Origin: an uncultured Chlamydiae bacterium
GTDB lineage: Bacteria; Chlamydiota; Chlamydiia; Chlamydiales; JAJFMA01
Assembly (NCBI GenBank): GCA_963713615.1
Contig: CAVQMM010000001.1
Coordinates: 1,440,001 to 1,504,000 of the forward strand
Length of the DNA: 64,000 bases
Reading direction: 5' to 3'
Under the pieces are notes generated by a model. That model was given only the letters and a program-made list of their open reading frames with translations, searched no databases and had not been told where the DNA came from. How positions within the stretch are numbered: the first letter of the stretch is position 1; each line of letters begins with the position of its first letter. Both the position numbers and the translations under genes were made by a program. This document shows, in pieces, positions 1 through 47,434 of this stretch.

Positions 1-102
1 GGACTAGAAGTCGCAGTGAGAAAGATTCACAAGCGCCTCTACTTGCAGCAAAGATCTATTTGAGCTTTGGATAGAGGCTCAAGCCAATCAAGGAGGTGCA
101 GC

Positions 103-414: not shown

Positions 415-2579
415 ATAACCTGCCCATGGTTGTACCAAGAGATCGACTAACATGTCATTGGCAATATCGAGATGAGAAAGGGCTACCTGTTGCGATTGTC
501 GCAAGATATGACGAATGCGTCACAGGCGGCAAACAGAAAAAATGGTTTCATCAATTCTATCTAAACAGGTCTGACGAATGGGTCGAGGGCGCGCCAACGC
601 CCTCTCCCTTATTTGGGCTAGATACCTTGCCAAAACACCAATATGAAGGGTTTGTGTATATCTTTGAAGGTGAAAAATGCACTAACGGGTCTCACCACTT
701 AGGGCTTCCTGCACTAACCTCTATGATGGGCGCCAGCCAGGCGGACAATGCCGATTGGACAATATTAGCCAAATTTCGACATCTAAAGCGCTTTGTACTG
801 GTACCAGATAACGACATCCCTGGTCAACGGTATATGGAAATCGTCCATCATAATATCAAAAAGGCCCATCCAGATGCGGAAGTCTTTGTTTGTAACCTAA
901 ATGTCGAGGAAAAGGGACATGACCTCATTGACTGGCTTCAGGCACAGCATGCATGCTCACAGGAGTGGGATGGATTTTCCCCAATCGACGATCCTTATTG
1001 CGATCATTTGAAGGTCGTATTTGAGAAATATGTGGAAGCCCATCTTGTACCGGCGGGAAAGTATTTCGCTCAAACGGATTCCTCGGAACCGACCTTTGAA
1101 GGTCCGCCAGAACCTATCGAAGAAGTTTTAGATGCTGTACTCCCTTGCCCAATCGAAACACTTCCAGAGATTATCCATCGCTGGATTTCCACCGAAGCCA
1201 AGCTTATGCAAGTACCCCCTGACTATTTGGCGATACCCTTATTCTATCTAGGCAGTCTTCTTGGCAGGAAGCGAGGCTTGAGGCTTCGCCCTGGAAATGA
1301 TTGGGTCGAACATAGCAATATTTGGGGAATACAGGTTGGAAGACCCTCTGTGATGAAAAGTCCTGCCATGAGAAAGGCAATGAAACCACTGGTGGTTCTA
1401 GCCTTGCGAGCAGATGTTCGCTTTAAAGAAGCATTGAAGAAGTACGAAGCTGAATTGGAGGCATGGAAGATTCGAAATAAGGCTAGCGAAGAATGTTACA
1501 AAAAAAATGTAAAGAATGCCCTGGATAAGCCACCAATGGCCACAAATCAAGAACTCATTCTTCAAACGCAGGAAGAACCTTGTAAACCTGTCCGAAAGCG
1601 TTACAAGACGGACGACCCTACGGTAGAGAAGCTCGGCGAACTTTTAATTGAAAACCCACAAGGCTTATTACTCTTTCGAGATGAGCTATCCGGATGGTTA
1701 CACAGCTTCAACAAACCAGGAAGGGAAAATGATCGTCAATTTTTTTTGGAAAGCTGGACAGGACGGGAAGACTTCAATGTGGATCGTATCGGACGCGGTT
1801 CTTTGCACATTCCAGCATTGTGCCTCTCAATTTTCGGCAGTATCCAGCCTGGCCCGCTCACTCAATATATTCGAGCTGCTATAAAAGGAGGAATAGGTGA
1901 CGATGGATTCCTGCAAAGGTTTCAGCTTGTTGTTTGGCCCGATCCTACTCTTGGCTGGGAACTAATAGAAGGTGTTTCCACTATAGAGTTCGAAGAACCC
2001 CTTCAGGACATTTTTGACACGATGGATAATCTGAACTTAGGCGAGGATAACAACCCTATCTATCTCGAGTTTGCGCCGGATGCACAGCAAAAATTTAATG
2101 AATGGCAATGCCAGCATGAACACCGACTTCGAACAGGCGTCCTAGCTCCACACCTTGAGGCCCATTTGGCAAAGTACAAAAAACTTTTGCCGGCTCTTTG
2201 CTTGATCCTGGAGCACTTAGATGCGGCTATAGTAGGTCGAATACCTATTGAAGTTACCTTGAGAACCCTTGAAGCTTCCATAAACTGGCTTGAATACTTC
2301 GAAAGTCATGCCAATCGTATGTATAATAGTGTCAGAAATGCGATCCCTAAAGCTGCTTTAGAACTAATCAGGCATGTAAAGAGCGGAGACATTCAAGTAC
2401 CATTTTCAGTACGGGACGTCTACTATAAACACCACTGGAGCGGGCTTTCCGATGCTGATGAGGTGAAAGAAGTCTTGGACTACTTAGAGGAAAGAAATTA
2501 TGTAGCGGCTGTAACCAGGAAGGGTAAGGGAAGGCCAAGTGCCAGGTATTGGATCAATCCAAAAATCCTGGAGAATTAG
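411..2579 (+). CDS. TOPRIM primase fused to a DUF3987 (YfjI-like) domain
   Basis: FEGEK and PDNDIPG TOPRIM motifs; GRPSVMKSP, LFRDELSG, DDGFLQRF in the C-terminal domain; ATG overlaps the upstream stop. Confidence 0.8.
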   Translation: MNNLPMVVPRDRLTCHWQYRDEKGLPVAIVARYDECVTGGKQKKWFHQFYLNRSDEWVEGAPTPSPLFGLDTLPKHQYEGFVYIFEGEKCTNGSHHLGLPALTSMMGASQADNADWTILAKFRHLKRFVLVPDNDIPGQRYMEIVHHNIKKAHPDAEVFVCNLNVEEKGHDLIDWLQAQHACSQEWDGFSPIDDPYCDHLKVVFEKYVEAHLVPAGKYFAQTDSSEPTFEGPPEPIEEVLDAVLPCPIETLPEIIHRWISTEAKLMQVPPDYLAIPLFYLGSLLGRKRGLRLRPGNDWVEHSNIWGIQVGRPSVMKSPAMRKAMKPLVVLALRADVRFKEALKKYEAELEAWKIRNKASEECYKKNVKNALDKPPMATNQELILQTQEEPCKPVRKRYKTDDPTVEKLGELLIENPQGLLLFRDELSGWLHSFNKPGRENDRQFFLESWTGREDFNVDRIGRGSLHIPALCLSIFGSIQPGPLTQYIRAAIKGGIGDDGFLQRFQLVVWPDPTLGWELIEGVSTIEFEEPLQDIFDTMDNLNLGEDNNPIYLEFAPDAQQKFNEWQCQHEHRLRTGVLAPHLEAHLAKYKKLLPALCLILEHLDAAIVGRIPIEVTLRTLEASINWLEYFESHANRMYNSVRNAIPKAALELIRHVKSGDIQVPFSVRDVYYKHHWSGLSDADEVKEVLDYLEERNYVAAVTRKGKGRPSARYWINPKILEN

Positions 2580-2672
2580 GAATTAGATCAGATTCAAAAG
2601 GTTCGAAAGTCTATTTTGAACCTTTTGAACCGTCATTTTCTAGCAATAAACTTTAATTTTGGGGATAAAAAA

Positions 2673-3167
2673 ATGGCGTCAGAAGCACAAGTCAAAGCTA
2701 ATAGACAAAATGCACTCAAATCAACAGGACCTCGAACCATTGAAGGTAAAGCATGCGCTAGCCAAAACTCAGCTAAGCATGGGCTGCTCTCGAAGGATTT
2801 GTTGATCCTCGATGAAAGACTAGAAGAGCTCAACTCATTCCGTCAAGGAATCTATCAAAACTTATGTCCCCAGGGGGCTGTGGAAGTCCTTTTGGTTGAA
2901 AAAATAATTAATGCAGCGTGGCGCCTTCGACGCGTAACTAAAGTTGAAGGTGAAGTGATCATGCAAAGCAATAGATTCCAAGAATATGATCGGGGAATCC
3001 ACAAAGCCTTTAGGGGTTGTGATGGTTCATGCCTGCAAACTCTGTCTCGATATGAGATGACTCTTGAACGAAGTTTCTATAAAGCTATCCATGAACTCCA
3101 ACGTCTTCAAGCCATGCGTGTTGGAGTGCCAGTGTTGGCACCGGTAGCAATTGACTTTAACGTGTGA
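2673..3167 (+). CDS. Conserved mobile-element protein of the ANRxNAxKSTGPRT type
   Basis: ANRQNALKSTGPRT...N..KHGL and LSRYE..LER motifs. Confidence 0.7.
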   Translation: MASEAQVKANRQNALKSTGPRTIEGKACASQNSAKHGLLSKDLLILDERLEELNSFRQGIYQNLCPQGAVEVLLVEKIINAAWRLRRVTKVEGEVIMQSNRFQEYDRGIHKAFRGCDGSCLQTLSRYEMTLERSFYKAIHELQRLQAMRVGVPVLAPVAIDFNV

Positions 3168-3631
3168 TTAACCCTCACAATTGGCTTCGTTTGGAAAATA
3201 CAATACACGATAGGTCGTTCAAATGTTAACCCTAAAGAAGCCGGCCTTCAGGAGTGAGGTCCACCGATAAGATTTTTGATTTCACTGGGTCAAGTTATAT
3301 GCATCGACTGCCTGTCCATTATTCCGAAAATCGAATATTAGCGACGCAGACGGTTGAAACTTCAAGGTTTCAACTTTTTTTAAGAACAATGGTACCTAAA
3401 TTTAGGTAGAGTGTTTTTCTTAATCTATCCACAGATAGCCTGCTCCAGATAGCTAGCTATCAATATTAAGCAAGCCACTCAAAAATTCTCAGACGCTTCC
3501 TATAGAAGTAATTTTTGACTTAAAATATAATCAATACAATAAACATAACTGTATTGGTGATTAAATTGGCTGACTTGGTGTATTATTTAGTTAAAGAAGT
3601 GTGTTGATATTAGAAATATTTATTAATCTAT

Positions 3632-4756
3632 TTGACAATGCATAAGCATAAAAAATTAACATCTGCAATGCAAAACCTTTCAAGGTCTAAACCTAAGGTG
3701 ATTTCATTGTTTGCAGGGTGTGGTGGTCTTGATCTGGGATTTCATCTTGAAGGCTATGACATCGTCTGGGCAAATGAATTCAACAAATGGGCCGCGGATA
3801 CTTACGAGCGAAACTTTAAGAAGATAAAGGTTGATCGCAGAAACATTTTAGATATTGATCCCTACAATGAACGGGAAATTCCTTCCGCCGATCTGATTAT
3901 TGGAGGTTTTCCATGCCAAGACTTTTCTGTCATATGGAAAAGACCAGGCCTGAATGGAAGTAGGGGTAGCCTTTACCAAGAGTTTCTTCGGTTTATTGAC
4001 GCAAAAAAGCCAAAAGCTTTTGTTGCTGAAAATGTTAAAGGAATCTTGAGCGCAAATAAAGGTCACGCGATCAGACAGATTATTGAAGATTTTGAAGCTG
4101 TCGAGCCTGGCTATACGCTCAGTATTAAGCTATATAACTTCGCCGATTATGGTGTTCCCCAGTTTCGTGAACGGGTTCTCATTGTCGGAATTCGAAATGA
4201 CATTGGATTCCAATTTGAACATCCTATCCCTACGCACGGCCCCAAGGCATCCAAACCTTATTTCACTGCCGGTGATGCCTTAGATGGAGTAGACAAGGTC
4301 GCAAATAACAATGAGCATATGAAGATCATGCCACGGACAAGAGAGATCTTAAAAAAGATTTCAGAGGGCGGAAATTATGCCGATATTCCAAGAGATGATC
4401 CTCATTATGTTAATGGCATGATCAGCCATGTCTATAGGCGTATTCACCGAGATCAACCTGCCAAGACCCTGATAGCATCGGGGGGAGGAGGTACATGGGG
4501 ATATCACTATCCTGAACCAAGAGCATTAACTAATCGAGAACGGGCGAGGCTTCAATCATTCCCTGACTCATTTATTTTCACCGGATCTTTTAGCGAAATT
4601 CGCCGACAAATTGGAAACGCTGTTCCTCCTAAAGGCGTCCGAAATTTGGCAAAAAATTTGAGGAAGCTTTTCGATAGCCAATTTGAAAAAGTGGAACTTA
4701 AAAAACACAAATCGCTTAAACAAAAAAAAAATAGTACCGTTATAGATCGTGACTAA
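3632..4756 (+). CDS. dcm: DNA cytosine-C5 methyltransferase
   Basis: LFAGCGG, GGFPCQ, ENV, QFRERV, RERARLQSFP and QIGNAVPP motifs. Confidence 0.95.
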   Translation: MTMHKHKKLTSAMQNLSRSKPKVISLFAGCGGLDLGFHLEGYDIVWANEFNKWAADTYERNFKKIKVDRRNILDIDPYNEREIPSADLIIGGFPCQDFSVIWKRPGLNGSRGSLYQEFLRFIDAKKPKAFVAENVKGILSANKGHAIRQIIEDFEAVEPGYTLSIKLYNFADYGVPQFRERVLIVGIRNDIGFQFEHPIPTHGPKASKPYFTAGDALDGVDKVANNNEHMKIMPRTREILKKISEGGNYADIPRDDPHYVNGMISHVYRRIHRDQPAKTLIASGGGGTWGYHYPEPRALTNRERARLQSFPDSFIFTGSFSEIRRQIGNAVPPKGVRNLAKNLRKLFDSQFEKVELKKHKSLKQKKNSTVIDRD

Positions 4757-5783
4757 ACTTCTTCTAACACGAAAAAAGCCACTATCCCTAGGGAACAGCG
4801 CTTTCCTCGATGCCTTCGAAGAATATTCGGCTACTGCGGAGTCGATTTACATCTCTACGGGCTATGTGTCAGTTGAAGCCCTGCAATTTCTTTTGGCGAA
4901 TGCTAAGGAAGGAAGACTTCCCTACCTAGACCTTACAATTGGAATGCATTATTTTGACGGCATTACCAAAGCGCAATATGATTCCGTTATTGATCTTTCT
5001 AACCACTTGATGAAAACGCAAAGGGGAAAAGCTAGTATTTGTGTAGCTTTTCCTTATCATGGAAAGATTTATTCATTTCACAAGACAGGAAAACCATTTG
5101 CCGCAATTTTGGGGTCATCAAATTTGTCAGCCTTAAATTGCGGAGCGTATAATTTTGAAGTTGATACTACGCTAGAAAATCCATCAATGCTTATCGATCT
5201 ATACAACTTTCAAACTCAACTAAGAGAAAAAGCTTGTAAGTCAGTAGATGACTGGAAACCAAAGAAATTTATTGAAAGCATTAAAATTCCAGGAGCTACA
5301 AGATTAGAAGGAAAAGAAACAGCTGATTATTGGTGTCTCAATCGAATACAAAGCATTCAGATTCCTTTAAAAGCTGAACAAAAGAGCAATCTAAATGCAT
5401 GCTTTGGAAAAGGTAGAAAGCAAAAAAATCAATTAATAAGACCACGTCCGTGGTATGAAGTAGAATTAATTGTTCCTTTATCTACAACTAAAATAGAAGG
5501 CTATCCGAGGAACTCCGTAATTCAAGTCGTTACTGACGACGGTTGGATGTTTAAATGCAAGACCAGTGGAGATTATTCTAAAAATTTTAGATCGAAAGAT
5601 GATTTATGCATTCTTGGAGGTTGGTTAAAAGGTCGACTCGAATCTGCGCAAGTATTGAAAGTTGGTCAACATATCACGTTGCAAATGTTGGAAAGCTACG
5701 GCAGAAGCCATCTGGAACTTATACGGACTTCCGAACCAGATATTTGGTTGCTGGACTTTGGCACTAAGAATTCAAGAGGGTAA
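4749..5783 (+). CDS. PLD-family restriction endonuclease (NgoFVII/NgoAVII-like) with C-terminal DNA-binding domain
   Basis: YHGKIY...GSSNLS PLD motif; KSNLN..FGKGR...RPWYEVEL and SGDYSKNFRS in the C-terminal domain; overlaps dcm. Confidence 0.85.
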   Translation: MTKLLLTRKKPLSLGNSAFLDAFEEYSATAESIYISTGYVSVEALQFLLANAKEGRLPYLDLTIGMHYFDGITKAQYDSVIDLSNHLMKTQRGKASICVAFPYHGKIYSFHKTGKPFAAILGSSNLSALNCGAYNFEVDTTLENPSMLIDLYNFQTQLREKACKSVDDWKPKKFIESIKIPGATRLEGKETADYWCLNRIQSIQIPLKAEQKSNLNACFGKGRKQKNQLIRPRPWYEVELIVPLSTTKIEGYPRNSVIQVVTDDGWMFKCKTSGDYSKNFRSKDDLCILGGWLKGRLESAQVLKVGQHITLQMLESYGRSHLELIRTSEPDIWLLDFGTKNSRG

Positions 5784-5791
5784 ATTGAAGT

Positions 5792-7666
5792 ATGAGTTTT
5801 TTTCAAAAATTTCTTGCAAGTTGGGAAGGGAAAAATCCCGGGACGTCGAGTGCTATTCAAGAATCCACAACTCAGTTTGTAGCTAAGCTATTGGCTATGT
5901 TTGATTATAGGGGCCAAACTAGCGCATTGCTATTGGGTCATGTACAAAGCGGAAAGACAAGCCAAATTCTCGCAACCATTAGCTCACTAGCCGATAAAGA
6001 CTTTAAGTTATTCATAGTTCTAACATCGGATATGACAAGTCTGCAAGAGCAGACTTTGAAACGAGCCTTTAACTTTCTCCCAAGGGAATTCAATATATGT
6101 GATGAAACAGACGATATGCGATTTATAGAAAAAGGAATAAAAGATCCCACAATTCTGGTTTTAAAAAAAAACAGCAGAGTTTTGCGAAAATGGAAGCGCA
6201 AATTTGAGTCCTTAGATCAATGCAAATATGATCCTATGGTTTTTTTAGATGATGAAGCAGATGCAGCAAGCCTAAATACTAAGATCAATCAACGCAAATT
6301 CAGTACAATTAATCGAATCTTAGATGAAATGAAAGAAATTTCACCTAGTAGTATTTATATCCAAGTAACAGCAACGCCACAGGCCATACTTTTGCAAACT
6401 AAGCGATCCGGGTGGAAACCAACAGTTATTCATGCATTCGAGCCCGGCACGGGTTATCGGGGGGGAAATCATTTTTATGGTGAATCATCCAAATGTATTA
6501 GACCTCTACCTGAGGCGGAACGACTTACTCTGATAGGTAGCGAAGAAATTCCATCCGGACTCAAGGAAGCCATTCTGAGTTTTCTGATCAATGATATTTA
6601 TACTATTGATTATCTTAAGCGAAGCGTATGTAACCTTTTGGTTCATCCAGGGTCTAAAATCGAAGACCATGACAAAACTGAATCCAAGATAAAAAAACTC
6701 TTAAAAACTATTCCAGAGGAGTTCTCTATTGGATCACAAATGTTAAAATCCAATTTATTTCAGGCCTACGAAGATATTAACCAGACCTGCGAAGATCTTC
6801 CTCCTTTTAATTTTTTCTGGTCACATTTGCCCTGCGCAGTCAGGCGAATACGAACACAGAAATTAAATTCCGAAACAATTGAAAAATCGGAATATGACAC
6901 GGGATCAAATATCCTAATCGGTGGCAACGCTACTGGAAGAGGAATTACATTTCCAGGTCTTCAGGTGGTATATTATTGTAGAGAGTCGAAGAGCCCTCAA
7001 GCAGATACACTTTGGCAACACTCTAGAATTTTCGGCTACGATCGCAAGTTTGATGCATGCCGCGTCTTCCTCCCAACATTACTGTTACGAATATTTCGTA
7101 GCCTAAATGAATCCAATGATGCCTTATTTGGGATGCTGGCTGAACATGGGTTAGATCAAATAACTCTGCTTCAGCCCGAAGGGGTCAGTCCCACAAGAAA
7201 GAATGTCCTCGATCAGCGATCAATAAATCCGGTAGTCGGTGACTGCAATCGTTTCTTTGAAGGGGTAAGCCCTGTGCCAACCACTCAGATAGATTCTTTT
7301 ATTAGGAAGGAGGATAGGGAGGAAGATATTTCCATAGAGAATGCTATACAGCTTCTTGAGATGATTGATCCTGTTGAAGATTTTGACCGTCAAGACCTAC
7401 GTCTTTATATTAACTGCCTGAAGGCGTTGCAATCGGCCGGTGACAGAATCTGCCATCTTATCGTTCGCACTGATAGAGATATCACAAGAGAAACAGGTTC
7501 TCTTCTATCTCAGAATGATCGCCAAAGAGGATCATTAATCACCGATAGGACAGTATTGACTATATATCGCGTAAACGGTCAGGTCGATAAGGGCTGGACT
7601 GGTTCGGCGGTTTGGGTTCCAAATATCAAATTTCCTAAAGGTCGGTGTTTCTACTCTGTTGTTTGA
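5792..7666 (+). CDS. SF2 helicase-like ATPase with Z1 domain (N.NgoAVII/H.CglI-like)
   Basis: GHVQSGKT, DDEAD, TATP, IGGN..GRG.T.PGL, DTLWQHSR.FGY motifs. Confidence 0.85.
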   Translation: MSFFQKFLASWEGKNPGTSSAIQESTTQFVAKLLAMFDYRGQTSALLLGHVQSGKTSQILATISSLADKDFKLFIVLTSDMTSLQEQTLKRAFNFLPREFNICDETDDMRFIEKGIKDPTILVLKKNSRVLRKWKRKFESLDQCKYDPMVFLDDEADAASLNTKINQRKFSTINRILDEMKEISPSSIYIQVTATPQAILLQTKRSGWKPTVIHAFEPGTGYRGGNHFYGESSKCIRPLPEAERLTLIGSEEIPSGLKEAILSFLINDIYTIDYLKRSVCNLLVHPGSKIEDHDKTESKIKKLLKTIPEEFSIGSQMLKSNLFQAYEDINQTCEDLPPFNFFWSHLPCAVRRIRTQKLNSETIEKSEYDTGSNILIGGNATGRGITFPGLQVVYYCRESKSPQADTLWQHSRIFGYDRKFDACRVFLPTLLLRIFRSLNESNDALFGMLAEHGLDQITLLQPEGVSPTRKNVLDQRSINPVVGDCNRFFEGVSPVPTTQIDSFIRKEDREEDISIENAIQLLEMIDPVEDFDRQDLRLYINCLKALQSAGDRICHLIVRTDRDITRETGSLLSQNDRQRGSLITDRTVLTIYRVNGQVDKGWTGSAVWVPNIKFPKGRCFYSVV

Positions 7667-8121
7667 CGCAGTCTTTGAACTATCCGTCGATCAAGATTTG
7701 TTGCATCAATTTGACAACCCCATATAACTATTACTCTCCATCCAAGACCCTCTAATTTCTCTTTGTTCTCACGGTCGCGCTCTTGATTTCTTCTTAATTT
7801 TGCGTTCCAATATTTTAAATTGCTTTTAGGTAAACGACCCGATTTACAGTAGGGGCATTGATGCCAGAAACACCCGTGCACTAATACAATAGTTTTAAAA
7901 CGAGGTAGAACAATGTCAGGCTTTCCTGGTAGTTTTTTTTGATGTAAGCGAAAGCGAAATCCGCGTGCATGCAAATATGACCGCACCACTTTTTCGTGTG
8001 AGGTGTTCATGGATCCAATCCTAGACATTATCCAGCTTCTTTTCTTGGTGGAAAACGTATCAACCAACCCTTGCTCCTCGTAAATGGCTATTACGCGCCC
8101 AGACCGACCATAGGCTAACAT
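7651..8121 (-). CDS. vsr: Very short patch repair endonuclease
   Basis: RS.IMSRI, LPGKPDIV, VHGCFWH, GW.V..IW motifs; true start is probably a little downstream of 8121. Confidence 0.92.
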   Translation of the reverse strand: MLAYGRSGRVIAIYEEQGLVDTFSTKKRSWIMSRIGSMNTSHEKVVRSYLHARGFRFRLHQKKLPGKPDIVLPRFKTIVLVHGCFWHQCPYCKSGRLPKSNLKYWNAKLRRNQERDRENKEKLEGLGWRVIVIWGCQIDATNLDRRIVQRLRQTTE

Positions 8122-11000: not shown

Positions 11001-11484
11001 GTGAGCTTCGTCGGTACACAGCCAGGGCTAGGGGTCAGACGTGGGCTGAAACGAATCGACTATTTACGACGAAAATCAGTATCGATTTGTCCTCCCAGAT
11101 TCTGAAGGCAAGTGACAGAAAACACTGAGGTCAAAATGCTGTCCTTTTTGTCCTTAAGGTCCTTTTCGTCCACTTCTGGGGTTCTTGTACGGCGACAGTG
11201 ATGATGGCACCTCGGCGACACGCAGTTGGCACCTTCCATCACCGCCCGGCGTCAGCGAGTTGGCACCTTCCATCACCGACTGACGACAACCTCCTGGCAC
11301 CTCCTCCATCACCGACCCGCGACACGCGGTTGGCACCTCCCATCACCGCCCGACGACAGTCGGTTGGCACCTAAAAACAGGCCAGAATCAACGGCCCAAT
11401 CCCTCAAATCTTTCAGTCCTTTCTTGGGAGCTTGCAAGAGAGCATTTAGAATGCTGACGTCCCCAAACTTAAGCGAGAGTTAGG

Positions 11485-12981
11485 ATGTCAAATAGAATTA
11501 CGAAAGAACAATTGAGGTTGTATATGCAAATTAGAAACGGTGGCAGCATGCAGGCCACTGCCGCTGCCAAAGCGGGTATTAGTACGCGAAGCGCTAAGCG
11601 CTTCGAGAAAGGCACTCATATCAAGGAGTATCGCTCCAAATCTGGATCTTCATCAGACCCCTTCGCGAAAGTCTGGAGGACCGAGTTCGTTCCCCTGTTG
11701 GAAAGAGATCCGTTCCTAACGCCCATTACCTTAATGCGGGATCTCCAGGAACGCTATCCACAGGAATATCCCGACAGCCTACTTAGAACCCTACAAAGAA
11801 GGGTTCGGCAATGGAAAGCACTCCATGGAAGGGAGAAGGAACGGATCTTTCGGCAAAACCACCCTCCCGGTTTTCAGGGCATTTCTGACTTTACCAACTG
11901 CGATGAACTGCATGTAACAATAGAGGGTACTTCGCTTCCTCATTTGCTGTATCATTTCAGGGTTCCATTCAGCGGCTGGGCATATGCCTTTGTCATTCTG
12001 GGAGGAGAGTCCCATGTAGCTCTCTCTGCAGGTTTTCAAAATGCGTTATGGGAGCTAGGTGGGGTACCTGAAACCCATCGTACCGATAGTCTTTCAGCGG
12101 CATATAAAAATCTAAATGAATCAGCAAGAGAGGACCTTACAAACGCGTACAATGAAATGTGCGCACACTATGATGTAAAGCCCACGCGAAACAATAAAGG
12201 AGTAAAGCATGAAAATGGCAGTATTGAAAGTTCGCACAGACATCTTAAAAATAAAATCGATCAAAAGCTGCGCCTGAGGGGTTCTAGAGACTTTTCCTCA
12301 CTGCAAGAGTATCGAAACTTTGTCGATGAAATTGTTAAAAGTGACAATTCGCGACGTCAGGCTGAAGTAGCTGAAGAACGAAAGCACCTAAAGCCTCTCC
12401 CAAAACATAAGGTAGGCAGTCACGATATAGAAAACGTCGGTGTTCCTACCACGGGCATCATAACCGTACGACAGGCATATTATGCAGTGCCTTCGCGCTT
12501 GATAGGTCATACGTTAACGGTACACGTTCATGACGACCGATTAGAGTGTTTTCATGCAGCCTCTCATATCATTACTTTTCCGCGATTACGTTGGAGCAAG
12601 ACGGGTCCTCGCCCAAGAAACATCGACTATCGCCATGTCATTCCTGAGCTTGTCCGCAAGCCTCAAGCGTTTCGACACTACATCTTTAGAGATGATTTAT
12701 TTCCCAGCGATGAATTTCGCCAGGCTTGGGTGTTACTGGATGCGCGGCTTGATGAGCGTATGGCATGTAAGGAAATGGTGAGGATCTTAAAGCTGGCTGC
12801 AGACGGTCACCAGCAACAAATTGCAGCCGAGCTTCGAAAGGCACTAAACGAGCAACGCATACCAAGCTTTGAAGAGCTACAGCAACACTTTAAGGAAGCG
12901 AAGCACGTTGTCCCTCTGGTAGAGATTGAACAACACGATCTTGGCTCATACGACGAGCTGTTAAAGCACGCCACATTATAA
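11485..12981 (+). CDS. istA: IS21 transposase
   Basis: RTLQRR, SDFT, HRTDSLSAA, HENGSIESSH, YAVPSRLIG motifs. Confidence 0.95.
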   Translation: MSNRITKEQLRLYMQIRNGGSMQATAAAKAGISTRSAKRFEKGTHIKEYRSKSGSSSDPFAKVWRTEFVPLLERDPFLTPITLMRDLQERYPQEYPDSLLRTLQRRVRQWKALHGREKERIFRQNHPPGFQGISDFTNCDELHVTIEGTSLPHLLYHFRVPFSGWAYAFVILGGESHVALSAGFQNALWELGGVPETHRTDSLSAAYKNLNESAREDLTNAYNEMCAHYDVKPTRNNKGVKHENGSIESSHRHLKNKIDQKLRLRGSRDFSSLQEYRNFVDEIVKSDNSRRQAEVAEERKHLKPLPKHKVGSHDIENVGVPTTGIITVRQAYYAVPSRLIGHTLTVHVHDDRLECFHAASHIITFPRLRWSKTGPRPRNIDYRHVIPELVRKPQAFRHYIFRDDLFPSDEFRQAWVLLDARLDERMACKEMVRILKLAADGHQQQIAAELRKALNEQRIPSFEELQQHFKEAKHVVPLVEIEQHDLGSYDELLKHATL

Positions 12982-12997
12982 ATTTAGGAGAAGATTC

Positions 12998-13822
12998 ATG
13001 GTTACAAAAGAAGAAGCAGTACTACCGATACTACTCAAGCAGCTTCGCCTGCCAACAATGGCCGCTTTGTGGGAAGAAATGAGTCATCAAGCGGACCTTG
13101 AAGGGTGGGGAAGCGCCAAATGCCTGAAAGTCTTGTGTGAACACGAATTAACAGGAAGAACGGATCGTCGTATGATCAGGCACCTGAAGGAATCCTGCCT
13201 GCCCCTAGGTAAAACACTTACAGACTTCGACTTCAAAGTGACATCGCTCAATAAGACGTTGATTTGTACATTAGCCTCAGGTGGGAACTGGCTACGCGAG
13301 GGCAGAAACATTCTGATTTTTGGCCCCTCAGGAGTTGGTAAAACACATCTGGCAGCTGCAATTGGAGCGGGACTCTTAGAGCACAAGTTCCGTGTTTTGT
13401 TCATGCGTACCACCGAGCTCATTCAAAGGCTTCAAGCCTCAAAACAGGCCCTGACGCTACCGACAACGCTAGCAAAGCTGGATAAATATGATTGTTTGAT
13501 TTTAGACGATTTTGGCTATGCCAACAAGGATCTCATGGAAACAAATGTTCTCTTTGAGCTGATCTCAGAGCGATATGAGCGAAAGAGCCTGATCATAACA
13601 TGTAATCAGCCATTCAGTGAATGGACCAACATATTTCAAGATAAAGCTATGGCGGTGGCCGCAATAGACAGGCTGGTACATGACGCTCAAATTATCCAGA
13701 TCAACGGCGAAAGTTATCGCAGGAACAGCTTGTCAGCTAAAGCAAGAGCCAGTGTGACCGACCAGGATCGGGCGAAAACATTGAGTACTTGCATGAATCA
13801 AGAAATACAAGATTCGAGGTAA
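12998..13822 (+). CDS. istB: IS21 helper ATPase
   Basis: GPSGVGKTHLA, LILDDFGY, IDRLVH, GESYR motifs. Confidence 0.95.
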   Translation: MVTKEEAVLPILLKQLRLPTMAALWEEMSHQADLEGWGSAKCLKVLCEHELTGRTDRRMIRHLKESCLPLGKTLTDFDFKVTSLNKTLICTLASGGNWLREGRNILIFGPSGVGKTHLAAAIGAGLLEHKFRVLFMRTTELIQRLQASKQALTLPTTLAKLDKYDCLILDDFGYANKDLMETNVLFELISERYERKSLIITCNQPFSEWTNIFQDKAMAVAAIDRLVHDAQIIQINGESYRRNSLSAKARASVTDQDRAKTLSTCMNQEIQDSR

Positions 13823-13824
13823 AC

Positions 13825-14157
13825 ATGAAACATCATTCAGAAATACTCCTCAGTAGGGCTTTGGTTGAGGATTTACGAAATGCGGTGGCTGAGCTTGAGC
13901 GTAGAGCCGATAGCTCAATAGAAAACGCCCTAAGTGGAGACAGGACTTATGTGGCCCCATCTTTAGAGGTGCGAGAAGGGATTTTTCAGCTATTGGCCCT
14001 AGTAGCTGGCTTGGAGGAAGATCTACGTAGACGTTTTAGAGAACTTGTTGCAGAATATCTGGAACAGATCTATGCCTTTCATGCAAAATTGGAGGAAGAC
14101 TTGGAGGCTCTGGAGGGTAGCACTAGAAAGACTATCGGAGACGATCCAGTGATCTGA
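13825..14157 (+). CDS. Small helical passenger protein inside IS21
   Basis: ORF with GAGG RBS immediately after istB and inside the right TIR boundary. Confidence 0.6.
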   Translation: MKHHSEILLSRALVEDLRNAVAELERRADSSIENALSGDRTYVAPSLEVREGIFQLLALVAGLEEDLRRRFRELVAEYLEQIYAFHAKLEEDLEALEGSTRKTIGDDPVI

Positions 14158-14528
14158 GAAGAAGTTAGAACAGATGGTCCATACTCGCCCTGCGGGTATG
14201 GACCGGGCTGGAAGGACTTCAGACGAGAAGGATCTGGGCCCGGGTGATTCTGGCCTGTTTTTAGGTGCCAACCGACTGTCGTCGGGCGGTGATGGGAGGT
14301 GCCAACCGCGTGTCGCGGGTCGGTGATGGAGGAGGTGCCAGGAGGTTGTCGTCAGTCGGTGATGGAAGGTGCCAACTCGCTGACGCCGGGCGGTGATGGA
14401 AGGTGCCAACTGCGTGTCGCCGAGGTGCCATCATCGCTGTCGCCGTACAGGTTCTAAAGATGAGCCAAGAAAGTGCGGAAATTCTAGAGAGAAAATTCAT
14501 TGTTTTTAGGACGATTCGTTTCAGCCCA

Positions 14529-14629
14529 GGTCAGACGTGACTTGTTGACTTGTTCATGGTACGAGAGATTTTGGGTGAGAAATCCAGCAGAACTTTGGAC
14601 GAAAAGTCAATAAGTCACGTTTGACCCCT
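14529..14629 (+). repeat. REP-A doublet, right part (left part at 11027-11041)
   Basis: GGTCAGACGTGACTTGTTGACTT...AAGTCAATAAGTCACGTTTGACCCCT. Confidence 0.85.
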
Positions 14630-15786: not shown

Positions 15787-17502
15787 CCTCATTTCCCGTG
15801 AAAATTGTAACTAGGTCTGGCCCGGCAACGCAATTTTTAGACCCTGTAAAATTTCCCTCTGTGGTTTTGTAACCTCGGTGAGGATATGGCCGTACTTACC
15901 AGAATACTTTATTTTAGTCAGTGTATCCATTTCTTGTAGAAGCTCCCGAACCGTGTATCGTTTAATAAGACCAGACTGTCTCATTTCTTTGCGCAGAGCG
16001 CTCATGTAAATAAGGGCAATGAATTGCACAAAAAGCCTGCCATCAACAGTTGCTGAACTATGCATGCGTAAGCGTTTCATATCCAACTGATTTTTCAGGT
16101 CATCAAAGCACTTTTCTACCACATCTTTGTCTCGGTAGATTTGCAAGGACTCCACCGGATCCTTAATACTATTGGTCAACAGCGCTTGGAATCCAGCATA
16201 GCGGTTGATGTACTGACTCACAGCTTGATCATTGTACGAGACTCGTATGCCTCGCTTGCGGGTGGTCTTTATCACAAAAAATGCGTCGTACGCATCTTGA
16301 TGCGCGTTAATCAAATCTCCTGATTCCAGTTCCTTCTTATACCCAACCAATTCTTCAGTAAACTGATCGACGGCGGTGGCTCGTGCATGAGCATTGTAGT
16401 AGAGGTGTAGATAGCAGCGACGCTTGTCATCCCCCCATGGGTACAGACGAGAGTGAACATATAGGATCTCATTATCAAGCTTTTGGTATCCCTCAGGCCC
16501 ATGGATCACCCCATAAATGTCATTTATAGCGAGTTGTACCCACTTGTTCTTCAGAGGGATTGATAGAGTAAATCTGTCCCTGGCAGCAAGCAGGTGATCA
16601 ACATTTTTTTTGCTGTAGAACCCTTTGTCCATCACGTAGTGAAGTTTCTTTATCTCCAGAGCTTTGAAGGTCTTCAAGAGGTTGTGTAATGTAGTCACAT
16701 CGGTGATGTTGCCCGGAGTCCGTTCGAAATACACTGGCAAACGTCCCTTCTGGCCGAAGAGTATGGCAAGATTCAGCTGTGGTAACTTATCCAGGTCGCG
16801 GTTGTGGCCGTATTTGATGTATTCATTGAGCTCAGAATATGAGGAAATAGAAGTGATGTCGTAACAGAGATAATCATCCTCTAACACTTTATTCATCCAC
16901 TTGGTGAAAAAGGTTTGCTTCTTATCGATGCTAATGGCGCCAAGGATTTCGCTAATCCTCTGGCTGGTTAAGCACTCAACGGAAGGCACATGGTTCTTGC
17001 ACCATGTCCCGCAATAGCTCAGAGGCCCTCCTTGAATGGCAAGATAATAGGCCATTGCCTGAATCTGTTGGTACTCCTGAGGGAAGCAAGACCTCAACAA
17101 CTGTTTCAGGCCTAACTGCTCGGTAATAGCATCGAGCACGATCGAAGGTCCCACAACTTCAGCAGATGCAGTGACCGCGGGATCTCGAATGACTGCCTGT
17201 TCAGGTTTAAGACGCTTGGAGGGAATGAACTCTCCGGTGACTGGATCGAGCTTACCCACACACACTTGCTTATTACGAGACTGTTTTTTCTCTTTATCCC
17301 AGAATGAGGTGTATTCGTATACGTAGGTAACGCCGGTAGTCTTGTTTATATGGTTGACTCTGCATGGCATACACTATTTCCTTCCTTAAATCGTTACAAT
17401 TGTAACGATGAAAAATGAAAAAATCCAGCATAAAATGTGCGCAACAGGCTTTTTTTTAGTGAATTACGACAGACCTAGTTACAATTTTCGCGGGAAATGA
17501 GG
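15787..17502 (-). mobile_element. IS1634-family element
   Basis: 33-bp TIRs with one mismatch; 6-bp TSD ATGTAA (15781-15786, 17503-17508). Confidence 0.93.
15811..17370 (-). CDS. IS1634 transposase
   Basis: YDITSISSY, YGHNRD..LPQ.NL, MDKGFYS, Y...D.VEK.F..LK motifs. Confidence 0.92.
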   Translation of the reverse strand: MPCRVNHINKTTGVTYVYEYTSFWDKEKKQSRNKQVCVGKLDPVTGEFIPSKRLKPEQAVIRDPAVTASAEVVGPSIVLDAITEQLGLKQLLRSCFPQEYQQIQAMAYYLAIQGGPLSYCGTWCKNHVPSVECLTSQRISEILGAISIDKKQTFFTKWMNKVLEDDYLCYDITSISSYSELNEYIKYGHNRDLDKLPQLNLAILFGQKGRLPVYFERTPGNITDVTTLHNLLKTFKALEIKKLHYVMDKGFYSKKNVDHLLAARDRFTLSIPLKNKWVQLAINDIYGVIHGPEGYQKLDNEILYVHSRLYPWGDDKRRCYLHLYYNAHARATAVDQFTEELVGYKKELESGDLINAHQDAYDAFFVIKTTRKRGIRVSYNDQAVSQYINRYAGFQALLTNSIKDPVESLQIYRDKDVVEKCFDDLKNQLDMKRLRMHSSATVDGRLFVQFIALIYMSALRKEMRQSGLIKRYTVRELLQEMDTLTKIKYSGKYGHILTEVTKPQREILQGLKIALPGQT

Positions 17503-18100: not shown

Positions 18101-18116
18101 GGCTAGGGGTCAGACG
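18101..18116 (+). repeat. REP-A left end (IS target)
   Basis: GGCTAGGGGTCAGACG directly followed by the IS terminus TGGGGTGAAACGAA. Confidence 0.8.
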
Positions 18117-19912
18117 TGGGGTGAAACGAACCACCAGTTTTCGAGAAAAATCAGGCCTATTTTTACCCCCTAATTCTGGTACCAGACCTTATGGCAGCTC
18201 CCAATTAGCAATTGTTCAATTTCCCTTGTTGAAATCTAAAAAGTTGATTATCTTGAGTTGATTTTTTAAAAATATCCCACGCCCATTGCAATTACAGGGA
18301 CAACATGAACGAAAAAACCAACAAGTCCAGCATCAACAAAGAAGCGCGTATGTTACGCAGACAAAACAAACGAATCGAGGAGAGCCGCTCCTTAATCAAA
18401 GCCAAAAATCACGAGAAAGGAAAAATCATCAAGGCACACGAGGATCGCCAAACGGAGTTAGCGCAAAATCGCGATGAATGGAAGGCGAAGTGTAAGGAAC
18501 AGGAAAGGCAATGTGCTGAGGCAGAGAAAAATTACAAGCACGTAGCGGGTCTACTTAATATAAAAGAGGAGCAGCTAAAGGAAATACTAAGGGAATTTGA
18601 AAAGTTAAAAAAAAAGATCTCCCGAAGAAACGATAAAGTTGGACTCGCTGTGCAGTCGGCTTCGATGTTGGTATCAACGCTCTGTTATCCTACTGTGCGT
18701 TCGTTTATTTGTAATAGGTGCATCTCCATTACGAACCACCGCTAACAGTTTAAAAGTCTCATTTGAGACCCTTCCTGAGCTGAAGGGGTATCGAGCGCCA
18801 TCATTTATGACGATTAAACGTTGGGCGCAACAGGTCGGTTATTATAAGCTGAAGCTCCCTAGAGTTACTGCAAACGATTGGATGGTGATCATTGACGCAT
18901 CCATTCAAATGGGTGAGAAAAAGTGCGTAGTGGTCTTGGGGTGTGGTGGGACCAACCTACCCAGGGACCGTGCGTTGACCCTTGAAGATTTAGAAATTTT
19001 GTCCATGGTCATTGTGTCGAACTTAAATGGGGAAGTCGTCGCTAAGCATTAGCCGTAGGAAAAATAATTGCTATCTGCAGCGATCGTGGATCGGAAATCC
19101 TTCGTGGTGTCAGACATTTTCAGAGCACCAATCCTGAGACGCGGCACATTGGCGATAATGCGCATCGCGTATCAAATCTACTTGAGGCTACCTTAGAGAA
19201 GGCCACACGCTGGAAAGAATTTCGCGAGCAAGTTACCCTAGCTAGGAGAAAAATGCAAAATTCCTTAATCCCCGGTGCGCTTCCGCCGAGCCCGCGAGCA
19301 AAAGCTCGCTACATGAACGTGGATTCTCTAATAAAGTGGGCTGCAGACATGTTGGTTTTGCTTGATTATGGAGTCTCGAATCCGGGTCTTGATATCGATG
19401 ACCTCCGAAAATATTTAGGTTAGCTTCCGTCCTATCGCGAAGACGTTGAATATTGGAATCGACTCATTTCTATCGGATTAGCAGCGCGTTACATTGTTAG
19501 GATAGAGGGTATTCACCAGAATGTAGCGGATTCCTTTGAACAAGCAATCTCTTCTATTGAACTCGGTAGGAGAGAACTGAAATTTTCCGATCAATTGACC
19601 ATATTTTTATTGGATCAGTCGAAGGGGATGAAACTGGGAGAGTGTTTTATAGGCTCAACAGAGGCATTAGAATCTCTTTTTGGAAAAATCAAGTACATGG
19701 AACGTGAACAAAGGGCATTTGGTTTTACTTCGCTTTTACTAGCAGCCATAGCGGCTGTTGGCCCAATCGATGAAGCAACAATCGCAAATGCATTGGCCTT
19801 AGTGAAGCTGTCAGACATAGATCAGTGGGCGGCAGAAGAAATCGGCCAGAGCGTCCAGTCTCAAAGACGGCAAATCAAGAAAATCGTAGCGAGGCTGACT
19901 TGCCCGCCTTAA
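18117..19912 (+). mobile_element. Degenerate IS with Mutator-like DDE transposase pseudogene (18305-19912); right end lost
   Basis: Left end TGGGGTGAAACGAACC; fragments carry IIDASIQ.G..K, SDRGSE, DNAH and STEALESLFGK; A9 tract at 18607-18615 and internal stops. Confidence 0.7.
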
Positions 19913-20111
19913 TTGCTTTTCGTTTCTCTAGGTTAGCTGCTTCGAATTCGTTTTCAGAGAAGCGAAATGAATCGCACATAAAGTTTACAACAACGGATCG
20001 GTTGTTGAACCCGATTACATTACCCCAGTCGAAAACAACGGCTTGAGGAGCTGCAATAAGGGAAGTGGCTGTGAGGGTTGATGCGATCAGGGAAAATAGT
20101 GTTTTTTTCAT
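19875..20111 (-). pseudogene. Exported HAD-family hydrolase, C-terminally truncated
   Basis: Signal-like N terminus followed by VVFDWGNVI; runs into the IS remnant. Confidence 0.6.
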
Positions 20112-24726: not shown

Positions 24727-24829
24727 GCTGGGGGTCAAGCTGGGGGTCAGGCCTGACACTATGACACTTGAGGCTGGGGTCAGGCCTGACACTAGAGGCT
24801 GGGGTCAGGCCTGATACTATGACACTTGT
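24727..24829 (+). repeat. REP-B stuttered array
   Basis: Four units starting GCTGGGG(G)TCA with variable 3' length; palindrome GTCAGGCCTGAC. Confidence 0.9.
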
Positions 24830-24919
24830 GTATATAAAATAAGGGGCTGGCGTAGCACAAATAAATTTATGGAAACGGCGCTTGATCTAACCTTCGATGT
24901 TATGGAAATGCCAAGCCCA

Positions 24920-25624
24920 CTAGCTATTGGCCATGGCCAAAATGAACTCAGCCTTAAGGCCATCCACCTCGCTTCGTAATGCACTAGATTCTTGCATTCT
25001 GCTTTCTAACCGTGCTGCGGCCTTGCTCATACCACTGGCTTCTCGATTACAGAAATCTGCTAACTCCTGCAGACTAACGCCCTGTGCATCTCTCATGATT
25101 AAAGCCATAACTGATCGGATATGTGAGATTTTGCGGTCCATATTAGGTAATCGTAGCATTTCTTCATGAATGTTATAGTGCTCCGTGATGAAAGAAAGAA
25201 TGCTTGGAAAGTCGATGGTCAGAGGATAGCCCATTGAATGGTCCATCCGTTCTCGCTCTTTTTCAATGAAATCATCATCGCCCAAAATCCCGTCACTAAA
25301 GCCATTTTTAAAATCGATATCCGGATCTCGGTTCATACCTGCGTTAACGTACTCGTGAAATGCGATTACAGCCTCACTGCGTAACTTGCCAAAATGCTGC
25401 AGACAATCGTCTATTGAGAGCCATGCATATTCTTCCTTCATCAGATATGCCTGATGACTGCTCCATCGATAATTCGAAGGATCATCCACCATCCTTGCAC
25501 GCACCGGATTCAAGTGGATGTATCGGACGAGTTCTTTGAGATAGCGGCGACTATCCACGAGTACCGATTTAAATCTCCCCTGAAATAAGTGTCCAATGGT
25601 TTTGCGACGCTGATTAAAAAATAA
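24920..25624 (-). pseudogene. 5'-truncated tandem copy of the RAYT gene
   Basis: 24795-25624 matches 25656-26485 (offset 861); the break abuts REP-B at 25625. Confidence 0.9.
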
Positions 25625-25690
25625 GCTGGGGGTCAGGCCTGACACTATGACACTTGAGGCTGGGGTCAGGCCTGATACTATGACACTTGT
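25625..25690 (+). repeat. REP-B array
   Basis: Two GCTGGGG(G)TCAGGCCTGA[CT]ACTATGACACTTG units. Confidence 0.9.
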
Positions 25691-25780
25691 GTATATAAAA
25701 TAAGGGGCTGGCGTAGCACAAATAAATTTATGGAAACGGCGCTTGATCTAACCTTCGATGTTATGGAAATGCCAAGCCCA

Positions 25781-26737
25781 CTAGCTATTGGCCATGGCCA
25801 AAATGAACTCAGCCTTAAGGCCATCCACCTCGCTTCGTAATGCACTAGATTCTTGCATTCTGCTTTCTAACCGTGCTGCGGCCTTGCTCATACCACTGGC
25901 TTCTCGATTACAGAAATCTGCTAACTCCTGCAGACTAACGCCCTGTGCATCTCTCATGATTAAAGCCATAACTGATCGGATATGTGAGATTTTGCGGTCC
26001 ATATTAGGTAATCGTAGCATTTCTTCATGAATGTTATAGTGCTCCGTGATGAAAGAAAGAATGCTTGGAAAGTCGATGGTCAGAGGATAGCCCATTGAAT
26101 GGTCCATCCGTTCTCGCTCTTTTTCAATGAAATCATCATCGCCCAAAATCCCGTCACTAAAGCCATTTTTAAAATCGATATCCGGATCTCGGTTCATACC
26201 TGCGTTAACGTACTCGTGAAATGCGATTACAGCCTCACTGCGTAACTTGCCAAAATGCTGCAGACAATCGTCTATTGAGAGCCATGCATATTCTTCCTTC
26301 ATCAGATATGCCTGATGACTGCTCCATCGATAATTCGAAGGATCATCCACCATCCTTGCACGCACCGGATTCAAGTGGATGTATCGGACGAGTTCTTTGA
26401 GATAGCGGCGACTATCCACGAGTACCGATTTAAATCTCCCCTGAAATAAGTGTCCAATGGTTTTGCGACGCTGATTAAAAAATAATGCGTACCTAAAAGA
26501 TAGATTTTGACAGATCTTCGATAACGAAATTTCGTTCAGCTGGATCGCCAAATGTATATGATTGGTCATGAAGCAGAATGCCAGAATGCGATGCCTATAT
26601 CGTTCAATACCCTCTTGCATTAGTAGACAGAATCGACAGCGTTCTGCGTCTGATGAGAAAATGGCCTGACCATTATTCCCTCTCAGCATCACATGATACG
26701 TAGCGCCGGGAGAAAAGTGTCGTTGTCGTCTCGCCAT
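25781..26737 (-). CDS. REP-associated tyrosine transposase (RAYT/TnpA-REP, Y1 HUH) with C-terminal HTH-like extension
   Basis: YHVMLRGN, MTNHIHL (HUH), GHLFQGRFKS, YIHLNPVRA, YRWSSH; flanked by inverted REPs. Confidence 0.93.
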   Translation of the reverse strand: MARRQRHFSPGATYHVMLRGNNGQAIFSSDAERCRFCLLMQEGIERYRHRILAFCFMTNHIHLAIQLNEISLSKICQNLSFRYALFFNQRRKTIGHLFQGRFKSVLVDSRRYLKELVRYIHLNPVRARMVDDPSNYRWSSHQAYLMKEEYAWLSIDDCLQHFGKLRSEAVIAFHEYVNAGMNRDPDIDFKNGFSDGILGDDDFIEKERERMDHSMGYPLTIDFPSILSFITEHYNIHEEMLRLPNMDRKISHIRSVMALIMRDAQGVSLQELADFCNREASGMSKAAARLESRMQESSALRSEVDGLKAEFILAMANS

Positions 26738-26802
26738 AAGCACTCCCACTTTGATGTTCGTAAAATATTTATTTGGATTTGAGAGCTTACAACGAATCAA
26801 AA

Positions 26803-26864
26803 GGTACGTCAAGTGTCATAGTGTCAGGCCTGACCCCACCATAGTGTCAGGCCTGACCCCACCA
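26803..26864 (-). repeat. REP-B array in inverted orientation
   Basis: CAAGTGTCATAGTGTCAGGCCTGACCCCACC plus a shorter copy with the same outer end. Confidence 0.9.
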
Positions 26865-27030
26865 TCCCTCTTCCATTTTTAGCGAGAGTCTTCGATCTAA
26901 ATGACCTATCAAAGCACTGACCGCCCTTCATCCGAATGCGCACTCGATAAGTTTGGCAATGCCTATGAGTCCTCACGATAATTCCTCTGAGATCATTTTC
27001 CGTTTTTTCCAAGCTTTCTTTCTGCTCCAT
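26865..27030 (-). pseudogene. Tyrosine integrase N-terminal remnant
   Basis: YRVRIRMKG....RSF.SKT.AK arm-binding-type N terminus, cut at REP-B. Confidence 0.55.
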
Positions 27031-47208: not shown

Positions 47209-47349
47209 ATGCGTATACTCATTATTTTTGGGAGACAAGCTTAAAAAAAATAGCAGATCTGTCACCGCCTGTCAAATGGAAGGACTGTCAATTTTTCCGG
47301 AATTGTTTTTTGACAAAACGCACTCAAATCGAGCACATGCTCTATATGC

Positions 47350-47434
47350 GGTCAGACGTGACTTATTGACTTCTTGTCTGAAATTTTGGATCTCTCGTGC
47401 GCTAAACATCTATAAGTCACGTCTGACCCCTAGC
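47350..47434 (-). repeat. REP-A doublet (shorter spacer)
   Basis: GGTCAGACGTGACTTAT...ATAAGTCACGTCTGACCCCTAGC. Confidence 0.85.

Follow-up and report, generated by a model that had tools for sequence, protein, structure and literature searches.

A decayed copy of an unannotated insertion sequence (IS) lies at positions 18101 to 19912 of a 64,000-nucleotide stretch of DNA from an uncultured Chlamydiae bacterium, hereafter the window. The genome holding the window is designated G000 and its contig C1; the other G and L numbers denote further genomes and loci that were compared. The copy is inserted in a palindromic repeat named REP-A (REP, repetitive extragenic palindrome) and consists of the left end of the element, a first gene (orfA), a tract of nine adenines (A9) and a broken transposase gene (orfB). 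The original prediction had proposed a Mutator-like family that homes to one exact base of REP-A. The examination of homologues shows the observation to be real and reproducible across genomes: the copy belongs to an unannotated bacterial IS family with a predicted hAT-like transposase, and two of its branches home to terminal repeats of the TIRYT type. The features of the copy and of the related insertions in the window are as follows.

18101 to 18116, plus strand: left half of REP-A (TIRYT-type), with the 9-bp target GGTCAGACG at 18108-18116
18117 to 18131, plus strand: left terminal inverted repeat (TIR) of the IS, about 15 bp, with a TGGG start
18305 to 18745, plus strand: orfA, predicted to form a coiled coil, with about 105 codons before the A-run
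18607 to 18615, plus strand: A9 tract at the orfA/orfB frame switch, with orfB in the +1 frame; likely transcriptional slippage site
18609 to 19049, plus strand: orfB piece 1, with a predicted helical N-terminus and the predicted first catalytic Asp (18894-18896), ending at a 16-bp deletion near 19045
19046 to 19912, plus strand: orfB piece 2, with the second Asp (19082), DxxH (19154-19165), a TAG (19421) and the predicted catalytic Glu (19670)
11025 to 11041, plus strand: left half of REP-A; the first of the two 9-bp duplicates is at 11033-11041
11042 to 11185, plus strand: 144-bp left part of a short family member with an internal deletion
11186 to 14449, plus strand: nested IS21-family element with istA, istB, a third open reading frame (ORF), 205-nt inverted ends and a GGTTCT duplication
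14456 to 14528, plus strand: 73-bp right part of the short element, including the final transposase codons and the right TIR
14529 to 14628, plus strand: second duplication copy (14529-14537) and the rest of the REP-A dimer (hairpin of about 100 bp)
49195 to 49225, plus strand: target 9-mer (49195-49203) and a 22-nt right-end stub in opposite orientation
52240 to 52265, plus strand: target 9-mer followed by a second-branch end (TAGGGTGTTGATT) at the same REP-A base

Insertions in the window

The 9-mer GGTCAGACG occurs eight times in the window against 0.23 expected, and TGGG[CG]TGAAACGAA follows its copies at 11033, 18108 and 49195. These three junctions are real and separate, as first proposed: their upstream flanks are unrelated beyond the repeat leader and the left ends at 11042 and 18117 are only 77.5% identical over 80 nt, so that they do not derive from one another by duplication. 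Local duplications around repeats do exist in this genome (D1, D3), and a segmental duplication of a single insertion, with no targeting involved, could have been invoked on that ground; it is refuted by the unrelated flanks and divergent ends, by the presence of both left and right ends beside the leader, by the insertion of a second branch at the same base and by the use of the same site in other genomes (L064, L068, L075).

The complete insertion extends from 11042 to 14528, where the right TIR ends, and is followed by the second copy of GGTCAGACG at 14529-14537, which bears out the 9-bp target-site duplication first reported. When the host flanks are rejoined, a full REP-A hairpin is restored, like that of the intact REP-A dimers. 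The insertion comprises 144 bp of the left part and 73 bp of the right part of an internally deleted element (217 bp in total), around a nested IS21 (11186-14449) with its own 6-bp duplication, GGTTCT; the right 73 bp retain the final codons of the transposase gene. This short element had been taken for a non-autonomous miniature inverted-repeat element. It is single-copy in G000, but other short derivatives of 143-300 bp recur, in G000 itself and in G401, G348, G389 and G199. As a separate observation, the inverted ends of the nested IS21 are perfect and contain tandem 34-nt subrepeats, its third ORF (13789-14157) has no Pfam match, and another copy lies at about 397 kb of C1, near a second-branch end.

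The copy at 18117 displays all the features first attributed to it, namely the motifs IIDAS, SDRG, DNAH and ESLFG, together with the ORF for a coiled coil (18305) and the tract of nine adenines (18607-18615). It is nonetheless a pseudogene: a 16-bp deletion near 19045 and a TAG at 19421 interrupt the transposase, there is neither a right TIR nor a target-site duplication, and no homology extends past about 19898. Two other runs supplied contigs (X3, 19692-19955; X4, 19827-19977) that cross this truncation without differences, so that it is no assembly error; these contigs are short, cover small shares of the stretch, and none spans the 19045 deletion or the left junction of the IS. A 78-codon ORF on the minus strand (19875-20111), with a HAD-like start motif recognised by eye and no Pfam match, is cut at the truncation, which suggests that one deletion took both the right end of the IS and the 3' part of this gene.

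At 49204 there is a 22-nt stub which most resembles the right end of the family and is thus in opposite orientation. A 198-nt duplication (49220-49417 and 49867-50064) starts right at this stub and covers the C-terminal part of a trypsin-like ORF with internal repeats (49870-51540).

The copies within the window are dead remnants. A search of G000 found no intact element and no second transposase copy, and a search of the genome with PF00872 gave no match. Further right-end remnants of the window's branch were located at C1:164523 and C1:1505162, the latter just past the window; one lies in REP-A and the other at a REP-B-like site. A transposase fragment of 45-49 bp is present at C1:1509593. 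A stub at C1:2366599, where only 6 bases match the end, was left out of the insertion counts.

The transposase and its family

A near-length search with the orfB piece returned 220 proteins. Among 401 genomes from the phylum, 26 gave a match to the same piece. Ten of twelve loci of named relatives belong to Parachlamydiaceae or other Chlamydiales metagenome-assembled genomes, and the other two are short contigs in such genomes from other phyla. A profile search extended the family to 2482 clusters at 50% identity (E<=0.001; 1561 at 1e-10), including members on plasmids of Nostoc, Gloeothece, Thiodictyon and Persicobacter. In a sample of Bacteroidota, 2 of 401 genomes gave matches, and a metagenome scan with one single protein as query gave nothing. 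Multi-copy elements are 1.5-2.0 kb long, start with T(A/G)GG and are flanked by perfect 9-bp duplications in 5 of 6 copies in G111, 5 of 5 in G132 and 6 of 6 in G270, as well as at 10 of 12 non-chlamydial loci examined. The family thus shows the TIRs, the duplication of fixed length and the several copies at unrelated sites that are general features of DDE insertion sequences. On short contigs, right ends are joined to left ends through spacers of 9 bp (L067) or 4 bp (L072), which could be circle junctions or tandem copies. IS256-type elements form circular intermediates with a spacer of 6-10 bp; the donor of the present family could leave by such circles or by cut-and-paste as in hAT, where excision goes with hairpins in the DNA on either side.

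Comparison of 110 diverse members with the Pfam and NCBIfam libraries, a check that had been suggested at the outset, yielded no model past its cut-off, which together with the homologous loci supports an unannotated IS family with DDE and DxxH motifs and 9-bp duplications. The best matches below cut-off were IS5_2 in three members (E 8.9e-5), IS6 in two and rve in one. No IS family was found with the pieces from the window and 20 close members against profile libraries, sequence searches of the PDB gave nothing meaningful, and the 30 nearest clusters in the ESM Atlas all lack a Pfam family, the nearest named clusters scoring only 0.80, which is chance level. Wherever the source records name a member, the name is always "hypothetical protein".

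Identity with the unclassified IS892 group of ISfinder, which would leave the target specificity alone as new, must be considered here. The Nostoc members are 1643-1679 bp long with two ORFs and (C)TAGGGTG ends, and they resemble IS892, which we take to be a cyanobacterial group of about 1.6-1.7 kb with two ORFs and CTAG-like ends. We regard this identity as improbable, given the uniform naming of members as hypothetical proteins, the failure of any IS family model to pass its cut-off among the 110 members and the absence of a homologue on plasmids alpha and beta of Nostoc PCC 7120, to which that search was confined.

Alignment of the 110 members showed D156, D180, E352 and K359 to be invariant (numbering of P0004), with D88 conserved in 99%, H183 in 98% and R231 in 98%. 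A structure model built from this alignment (pLDDT 94.1, pTM 0.90) superseded an earlier one from 20 close sequences (pLDDT 67.9). In the predicted model, D88 lies in the first strand (E80-91) and D156 follows the fourth (E148-155), while the DxxH motif opens a helical insertion of about 165 residues (~181-345) and E352 sits in the next helix (H349-368). The protein is thus predicted to be an RNase H-fold DDE transposase with D88, D156 and E352 as catalytic residues and a DxxH motif, and as modelled it works like the C/DxxH group, which comprises hAT, P, MULE and IS256 (PMC7780238, PMC3706591).

Within this group, the predicted fold is closest to that of the eukaryotic hAT transposases. Hermes ranked first in VIA-align (Z 15.3; 315 residues aligned, root-mean-square deviation 4.7, residues 47-387), ahead of the SIV integrase core (11.9), the P element (11.7) and ISCth4 of IS256 (11.3). 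Two results speak against this ranking: Foldseek placed Hermes, ISCth4 and P level (E 1e-5 to 7e-5) and so does not separate hAT, IS256 and P, and the weaker, superseded model ranked ISCth4 first. No hAT profile passed its cut-off in the 110 members; a single weak match to DUF659 (E 0.039) was obtained, in one of them.

The Mutator-like label of the original prediction holds as far as the DDE and DxxH motifs and the length of the duplication, within the 8-9 bp range, are concerned, since DxxH after the second Asp (D180 in 100%, H183 in 98% of the 110) and 9-bp duplications are shared with IS256 and p-MULT. Membership of IS256/Mutator was rejected on other features. This group is described as having an insert of 99-138 residues, inverted repeats of 18-39 bp and a conserved terminal cytosine (PMC3942029); here, 196 residues separate D156 from E352 (insert ~165), the ends read 5'-T...A-3' without terminal cytosine, the base outside the T varying among the G111 and G132 copies, and no curated Mutator or IS256-type model from Pfam or NCBIfam, Transposase_mut included, reached E<=0.05 in the 110 members. 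ISL3 was also discarded: there was no DDE_Tnp_ISL3 match, and profile A2 compared with the ISL3 transposase of the window gave a probability of 0.4%, with the DxxH stretch alone aligned.

The frame switch between orfA and orfB is marked by a run of 8 to 11 adenines (A8-A11) in 35 of 37 loci; to join the two frames, 20 of these require -1 and 15 require +1. The 18117 copy is of the +1 type, as is the element of G111, the A10 run of which is found in six copies that are identical in pairwise alignment. An orfA-homologous ORF lies upstream of orfB in relatives and is fused to it in frame in some; these natural fusions measure 517-553 aa, and the N-terminus was orfA-like in 7 of 15 tested. The active enzyme would be an orfA-orfB fusion that arises when RNA polymerase slips on the A-run; such slippage has been described for a Roseiflexus IS630 (PMC5009743). 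Ribosomal -1 frameshifting as sole mechanism was rejected because 15 of the 35 loci need +1. Two points are less favourable to slippage: many -1 loci carry A AAA AAG, which is a ribosomal frameshift motif, so that ribosomal shifting could serve these cases, and the A8, A10 and A11 runs may be homopolymer sequencing errors.

Target choice and the terminal repeats

The repeats in which the insertions lie start with GGGGTCAG, and REP-A pairs as dimers of about 100 bp. REP-B flanks a tyrosine transposase gene in the window, and REP-A flanks, in inverted orientation, a paralogue outside it (C1:1580930-1581900).

25781 to 26812, minus strand: tyrosine transposase (Y1_Tnp and weak Bac_DnaA_C; TIRYT type), flanked by REP-B
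47343 to 47435: REP-A dimer without an insertion; further such dimers near 30864 and 43022

The gene at 25781-26812 has a weak Bac_DnaA_C tail, and REP-A and REP-B both fit GGGGWSAS, that is, TIRYT terminal repeats flanking a Y1 transposase with a C-terminal helix-turn-helix. GGGGWSAS terminal repeats are characteristic of TIRYT, or TnpA-Y1 subclass 2.1 (PMC3733652, PMC6006769). Repeats spread by REP-associated tyrosine transposases had been proposed; the association of REP-A with a tyrosine transposase gene was found, and such enzymes likely spread these repeats, but the repeats are of the TIRYT type. A canonical GTAG-type target, with a GTAG or CGTC foot and a short hairpin, was rejected in view of the GGGGTCAG start and the ~100-bp dimers. 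The ranges 24741-26876, 49560-49680 and 51731-52203 of the window hold REP-B arrays around the tyrosine transposase gene, a partial duplicate of the gene (24920-25645) and, at 51760-52059, a related block of 300 nt.

Collection of homologues with their flanks gave 79 close-clade junction reads, 75 of which were kept after an end-similarity filter. Compared with GGYCWGRCS, 37 of these are exact, 58 have at most one mismatch and 63 at most two, against 0.008%, 0.13% and 1.2% of genome positions, respectively. The target logo is palindromic and insertions occur in both orientations. The same REP-A sequence as in the window is used in L064, L068 and L075, and the REP-B type in L051, L055, L056 and L065. 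REP-A alone was therefore too narrow a target: the palindromic 9-mer lies in both repeats and both are occupied.

Ends of another type, TAGGGTGTTGATT, come from a second, distant branch of this family. In G195 such ends enclose a transposase of 30% identity, with duplication GGCCTGACC. Seven insertions of this branch occupy the same or variant repeat sites in G000 (window 52249; C1:1604991-1605133, 1625821, 2369842, 2413125, 398045 and 3510003), among them a complete 143-bp element with duplication GGTCAGACG. Of 61 second-branch reads the filter kept 50, three of which are probable chance matches; 29 of the 50 have at most one mismatch of the motif and 41 at most two. Fragments of RHS-repeat-like ORFs were noted between repeat halves and second-branch ends (C1:2366600-2369840 and 2410600-2413100).

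Occupied and empty sites were counted in G000, as the original prediction had advised. Of the REP-A sites with the exact 9-mer, 7 of 27 are occupied, four by the window's branch and three by the second, against none of 21 identical 9-mers outside repeats (p=0.014); with all repeat sites the count is 8 of 44 against none of 29 non-coding, non-repeat motif sites (p=0.019). Use of REP-A (7/27) and REP-B (1/17) is not significantly different (p=0.13).

We consider it probable that the window holds a decayed copy of an unannotated IS family in which the transposase of the window's branch reads the palindromic 9-mer SGYCWGRCS, so that insertions gather in GGGGTCAG(A/G)C terminal repeats. The enzyme would read the 9-mer directly, a symmetric complex cutting the target with a 9-bp stagger, and insertions would thereby accumulate at one base of repeats likely spread by tyrosine transposases. 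Being intergenic, the repeats may be low-cost sites, as in the safe landing sites first suggested, and selection against insertions in genes may sharpen the pattern. Each insertion would also leave a usable target, the ends supplying TG or TA and CA or TA beside the duplicated 9-mer, which would account for stacks of elements. Twelve junction reads (7 distinct junctions) do abut another end of the family, and in L053 two different members and a third end are separated by GGTCAGGCC, in the order repeat, second-branch IS, 9-mer, close-clade IS, 9-mer, further left end.

Alternatively, the transposase could require the repeat itself, as an extruded hairpin or through a bound tyrosine transposase (TIRYT) or host protein, the 9-mer merely mirroring the repeat. 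Bases beyond the 9-mer are indeed enriched, a GG leader or GTCA arm being carried by 27 of 46 near-motif junctions not beside another IS (background 5.9%); all eight exact-motif insertions in G000 are in repeat context, with none at the 29 non-coding motif sites elsewhere, and unspecific elements are mostly found in genomes with 0-4 GGGGTCAGRC (G111, G132, G362, G364, G319). We nevertheless hold such repeat homing to be unlikely. The other 19 of the 46 junctions have neither leader nor arm, close-clade ends persist at motif-like 9-mers in the repeat-poor genomes G304, G348 and G403 (4-7 GGGGTCAGRC each), G352 (85% complete) uses the motif without any tyrosine-transposase match, and elements insert beside the ends of other elements, at places where the hairpin has already been disrupted. 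Direct readout of a palindrome of 9-13 bp, with the repeats as main safe supply, fits best.

In G401 one copy lies inside a repeat array directly upstream of a tyrosine transposase gene. In three REP-A copies (window 47350, C1:2368838 and C1:2420443) the leader is missing up to precisely the boundary of the 9-mer, perhaps through IS-mediated adjacent deletions.

Several observations weigh against direct readout or limit its reach. Nineteen of the 21 non-repeat exact 9-mers in G000 lie in DNA predicted to be coding by a crude ORF heuristic, so that selection explains part of the occupancy contrast. The close-clade reads are not independent, as they come from 45 source records and include both ends of one insertion and several insertions per genome. 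One genuine Nostoc end whose target is off-motif (L084) was lost to the end-similarity filter. None of 28 junctions of the G111/G132/G362-type elements is within two mismatches of the motif and only one of ten non-chlamydial elements is within one; G270 prefers GCCCWGGGC; and G074 has the repeats, yet its copy (L008) duplicated CCCACCACC. The tree in which the branches were placed is a quick version with weak support for deep branches.

The same CCCACCACC duplication was found for one Thiodictyon plasmid copy (L169), that is, in two distant hosts, three G648 copies (L165-L167) have a CC(N5)GG target, and unspecific lineages separate the two motif-specific branches in the quick tree. The targeting first attributed to the family as a whole is thus a property of certain branches: close homologues elsewhere use the same base of the same or the sister repeat, whereas family-wide homing is rejected by the 0/28 and 1/10 counts. 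A broader reading, which we advance tentatively, is that this IS family spans several phyla, is undescribed and is the closest relative of hAT among prokaryotes. Its 9-bp specificity would have been gained or retuned from one branch to another, two chlamydial branches using SGYCWGRCS, others GCCCWGGGC or GGTGGTGGG, and the remainder no specific sequence, so that several branches could parasitise TIRYT repeats and stack at a self-renewing site.

Neighbouring features and comparison with known systems

The window is IS-rich. Besides the elements above, it carries an IS1634-family element (15787-17502), an ISL3-family element (44121-45356) and an IS66-like remnant with 42-nt inverted ends (59002-60227). 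Long inverted-repeat pairs (175 nt, 86 nt and 40 nt) of other repeat or miniature-element families occupy 61822-63293 and 63424-63949. The region 67-8121 contains ORFs which we take, from their motifs, to be primase-like and DUF3987-like, followed by a presumed cluster of cytosine methyltransferase, endonuclease-like, Z1-like and Vsr-like genes; this suggests an integrated element with a restriction system.

About 2500 clusters of transposases are labelled "hypothetical protein", and their ISs are consequently missed by annotation based on Pfam and NCBIfam. The predicted fold lies nearer to hAT than does that of the one solved bacterial DxxH transposase (IS256 type), and this bears on the origin of eukaryotic cut-and-paste superfamilies. 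Since close relatives range from no specificity to a tight 9-bp palindrome, they offer a natural series for the study of how DDE enzymes acquire specificity, and the element is a compact candidate for site-directed insertion. Little work has been done on the biology of TIRYT repeats, and the family is an additional parasite of them.

The best structural match, hAT (Hermes; PDB 8EDG, 2BW3, 4D1Q), shares with the family the RNase H DDE core, the C/DxxH motif and a long all-helical insertion. Two further features resemble hAT motifs: in the insertion, a conserved R precedes an aromatic residue and N, and the Glu is surrounded by S-x-ES-F-G. Unlike hAT, whose target duplication is 8 bp, the family is bacterial, with 11-12% identity, a 9-bp duplication, T(A/G)GG ends, a coiled-coil orfA joined through an A-run and no hAT profile past cut-off. 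The p-MULT1-5 groups (ISCth4, ISH6, ISLre2, ISKra4, ISMich2) likewise combine DDE, C/DxxH and a helical insertion with duplications of 8-9 bp, and ISMich2 has two ORFs with a conserved -1 frameshift (PMC3942029); the present family differs by its insert of ~165 residues, its terminal T/A and the occurrence of both +1 and -1 frames, and the specificities described for p-MULT are promoters or AANATNTT, not repeats. The eukaryotic Dada transposons also have a DxxH-type DDE enzyme and insert sequence-specifically into multicopy elements (PMC3706591), but with 6-7-bp duplications and into small-RNA genes.

The target system corresponds to the TIRYT elements or TIRtrons (TnpA-Y1 subclass 2.1), with which it shares GGGGWSAS, the inverted flanking of a Y1 gene with a DnaA-type helix-turn-helix, and the organisation in dimers and clusters; the portions consulted of the two accounts of these elements do not mention IS insertions into the repeats or chlamydial TIRtrons (PMC3733652, PMC6006769). 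Targeting of REPs by ISs is itself already known. Within the literature searched, outside which most subscription papers lay, we found no account of the family or of IS insertion into GGGGWSAS repeats. Insertion at a fixed base of REPs has been described for the IS3, IS110, IS4, IS256 and IS5 families (PMC1525189). Like IS1397, ISKpn1, ISPsy8, IS621, ISPa11, ISPpu9/10 and ISRm22, the elements described here use one fixed base of an intergenic palindromic repeat; they are set apart by another transposase family, by a TIRYT-type GGGGWSAS target, and by two distant branches which share the site and stack at it.

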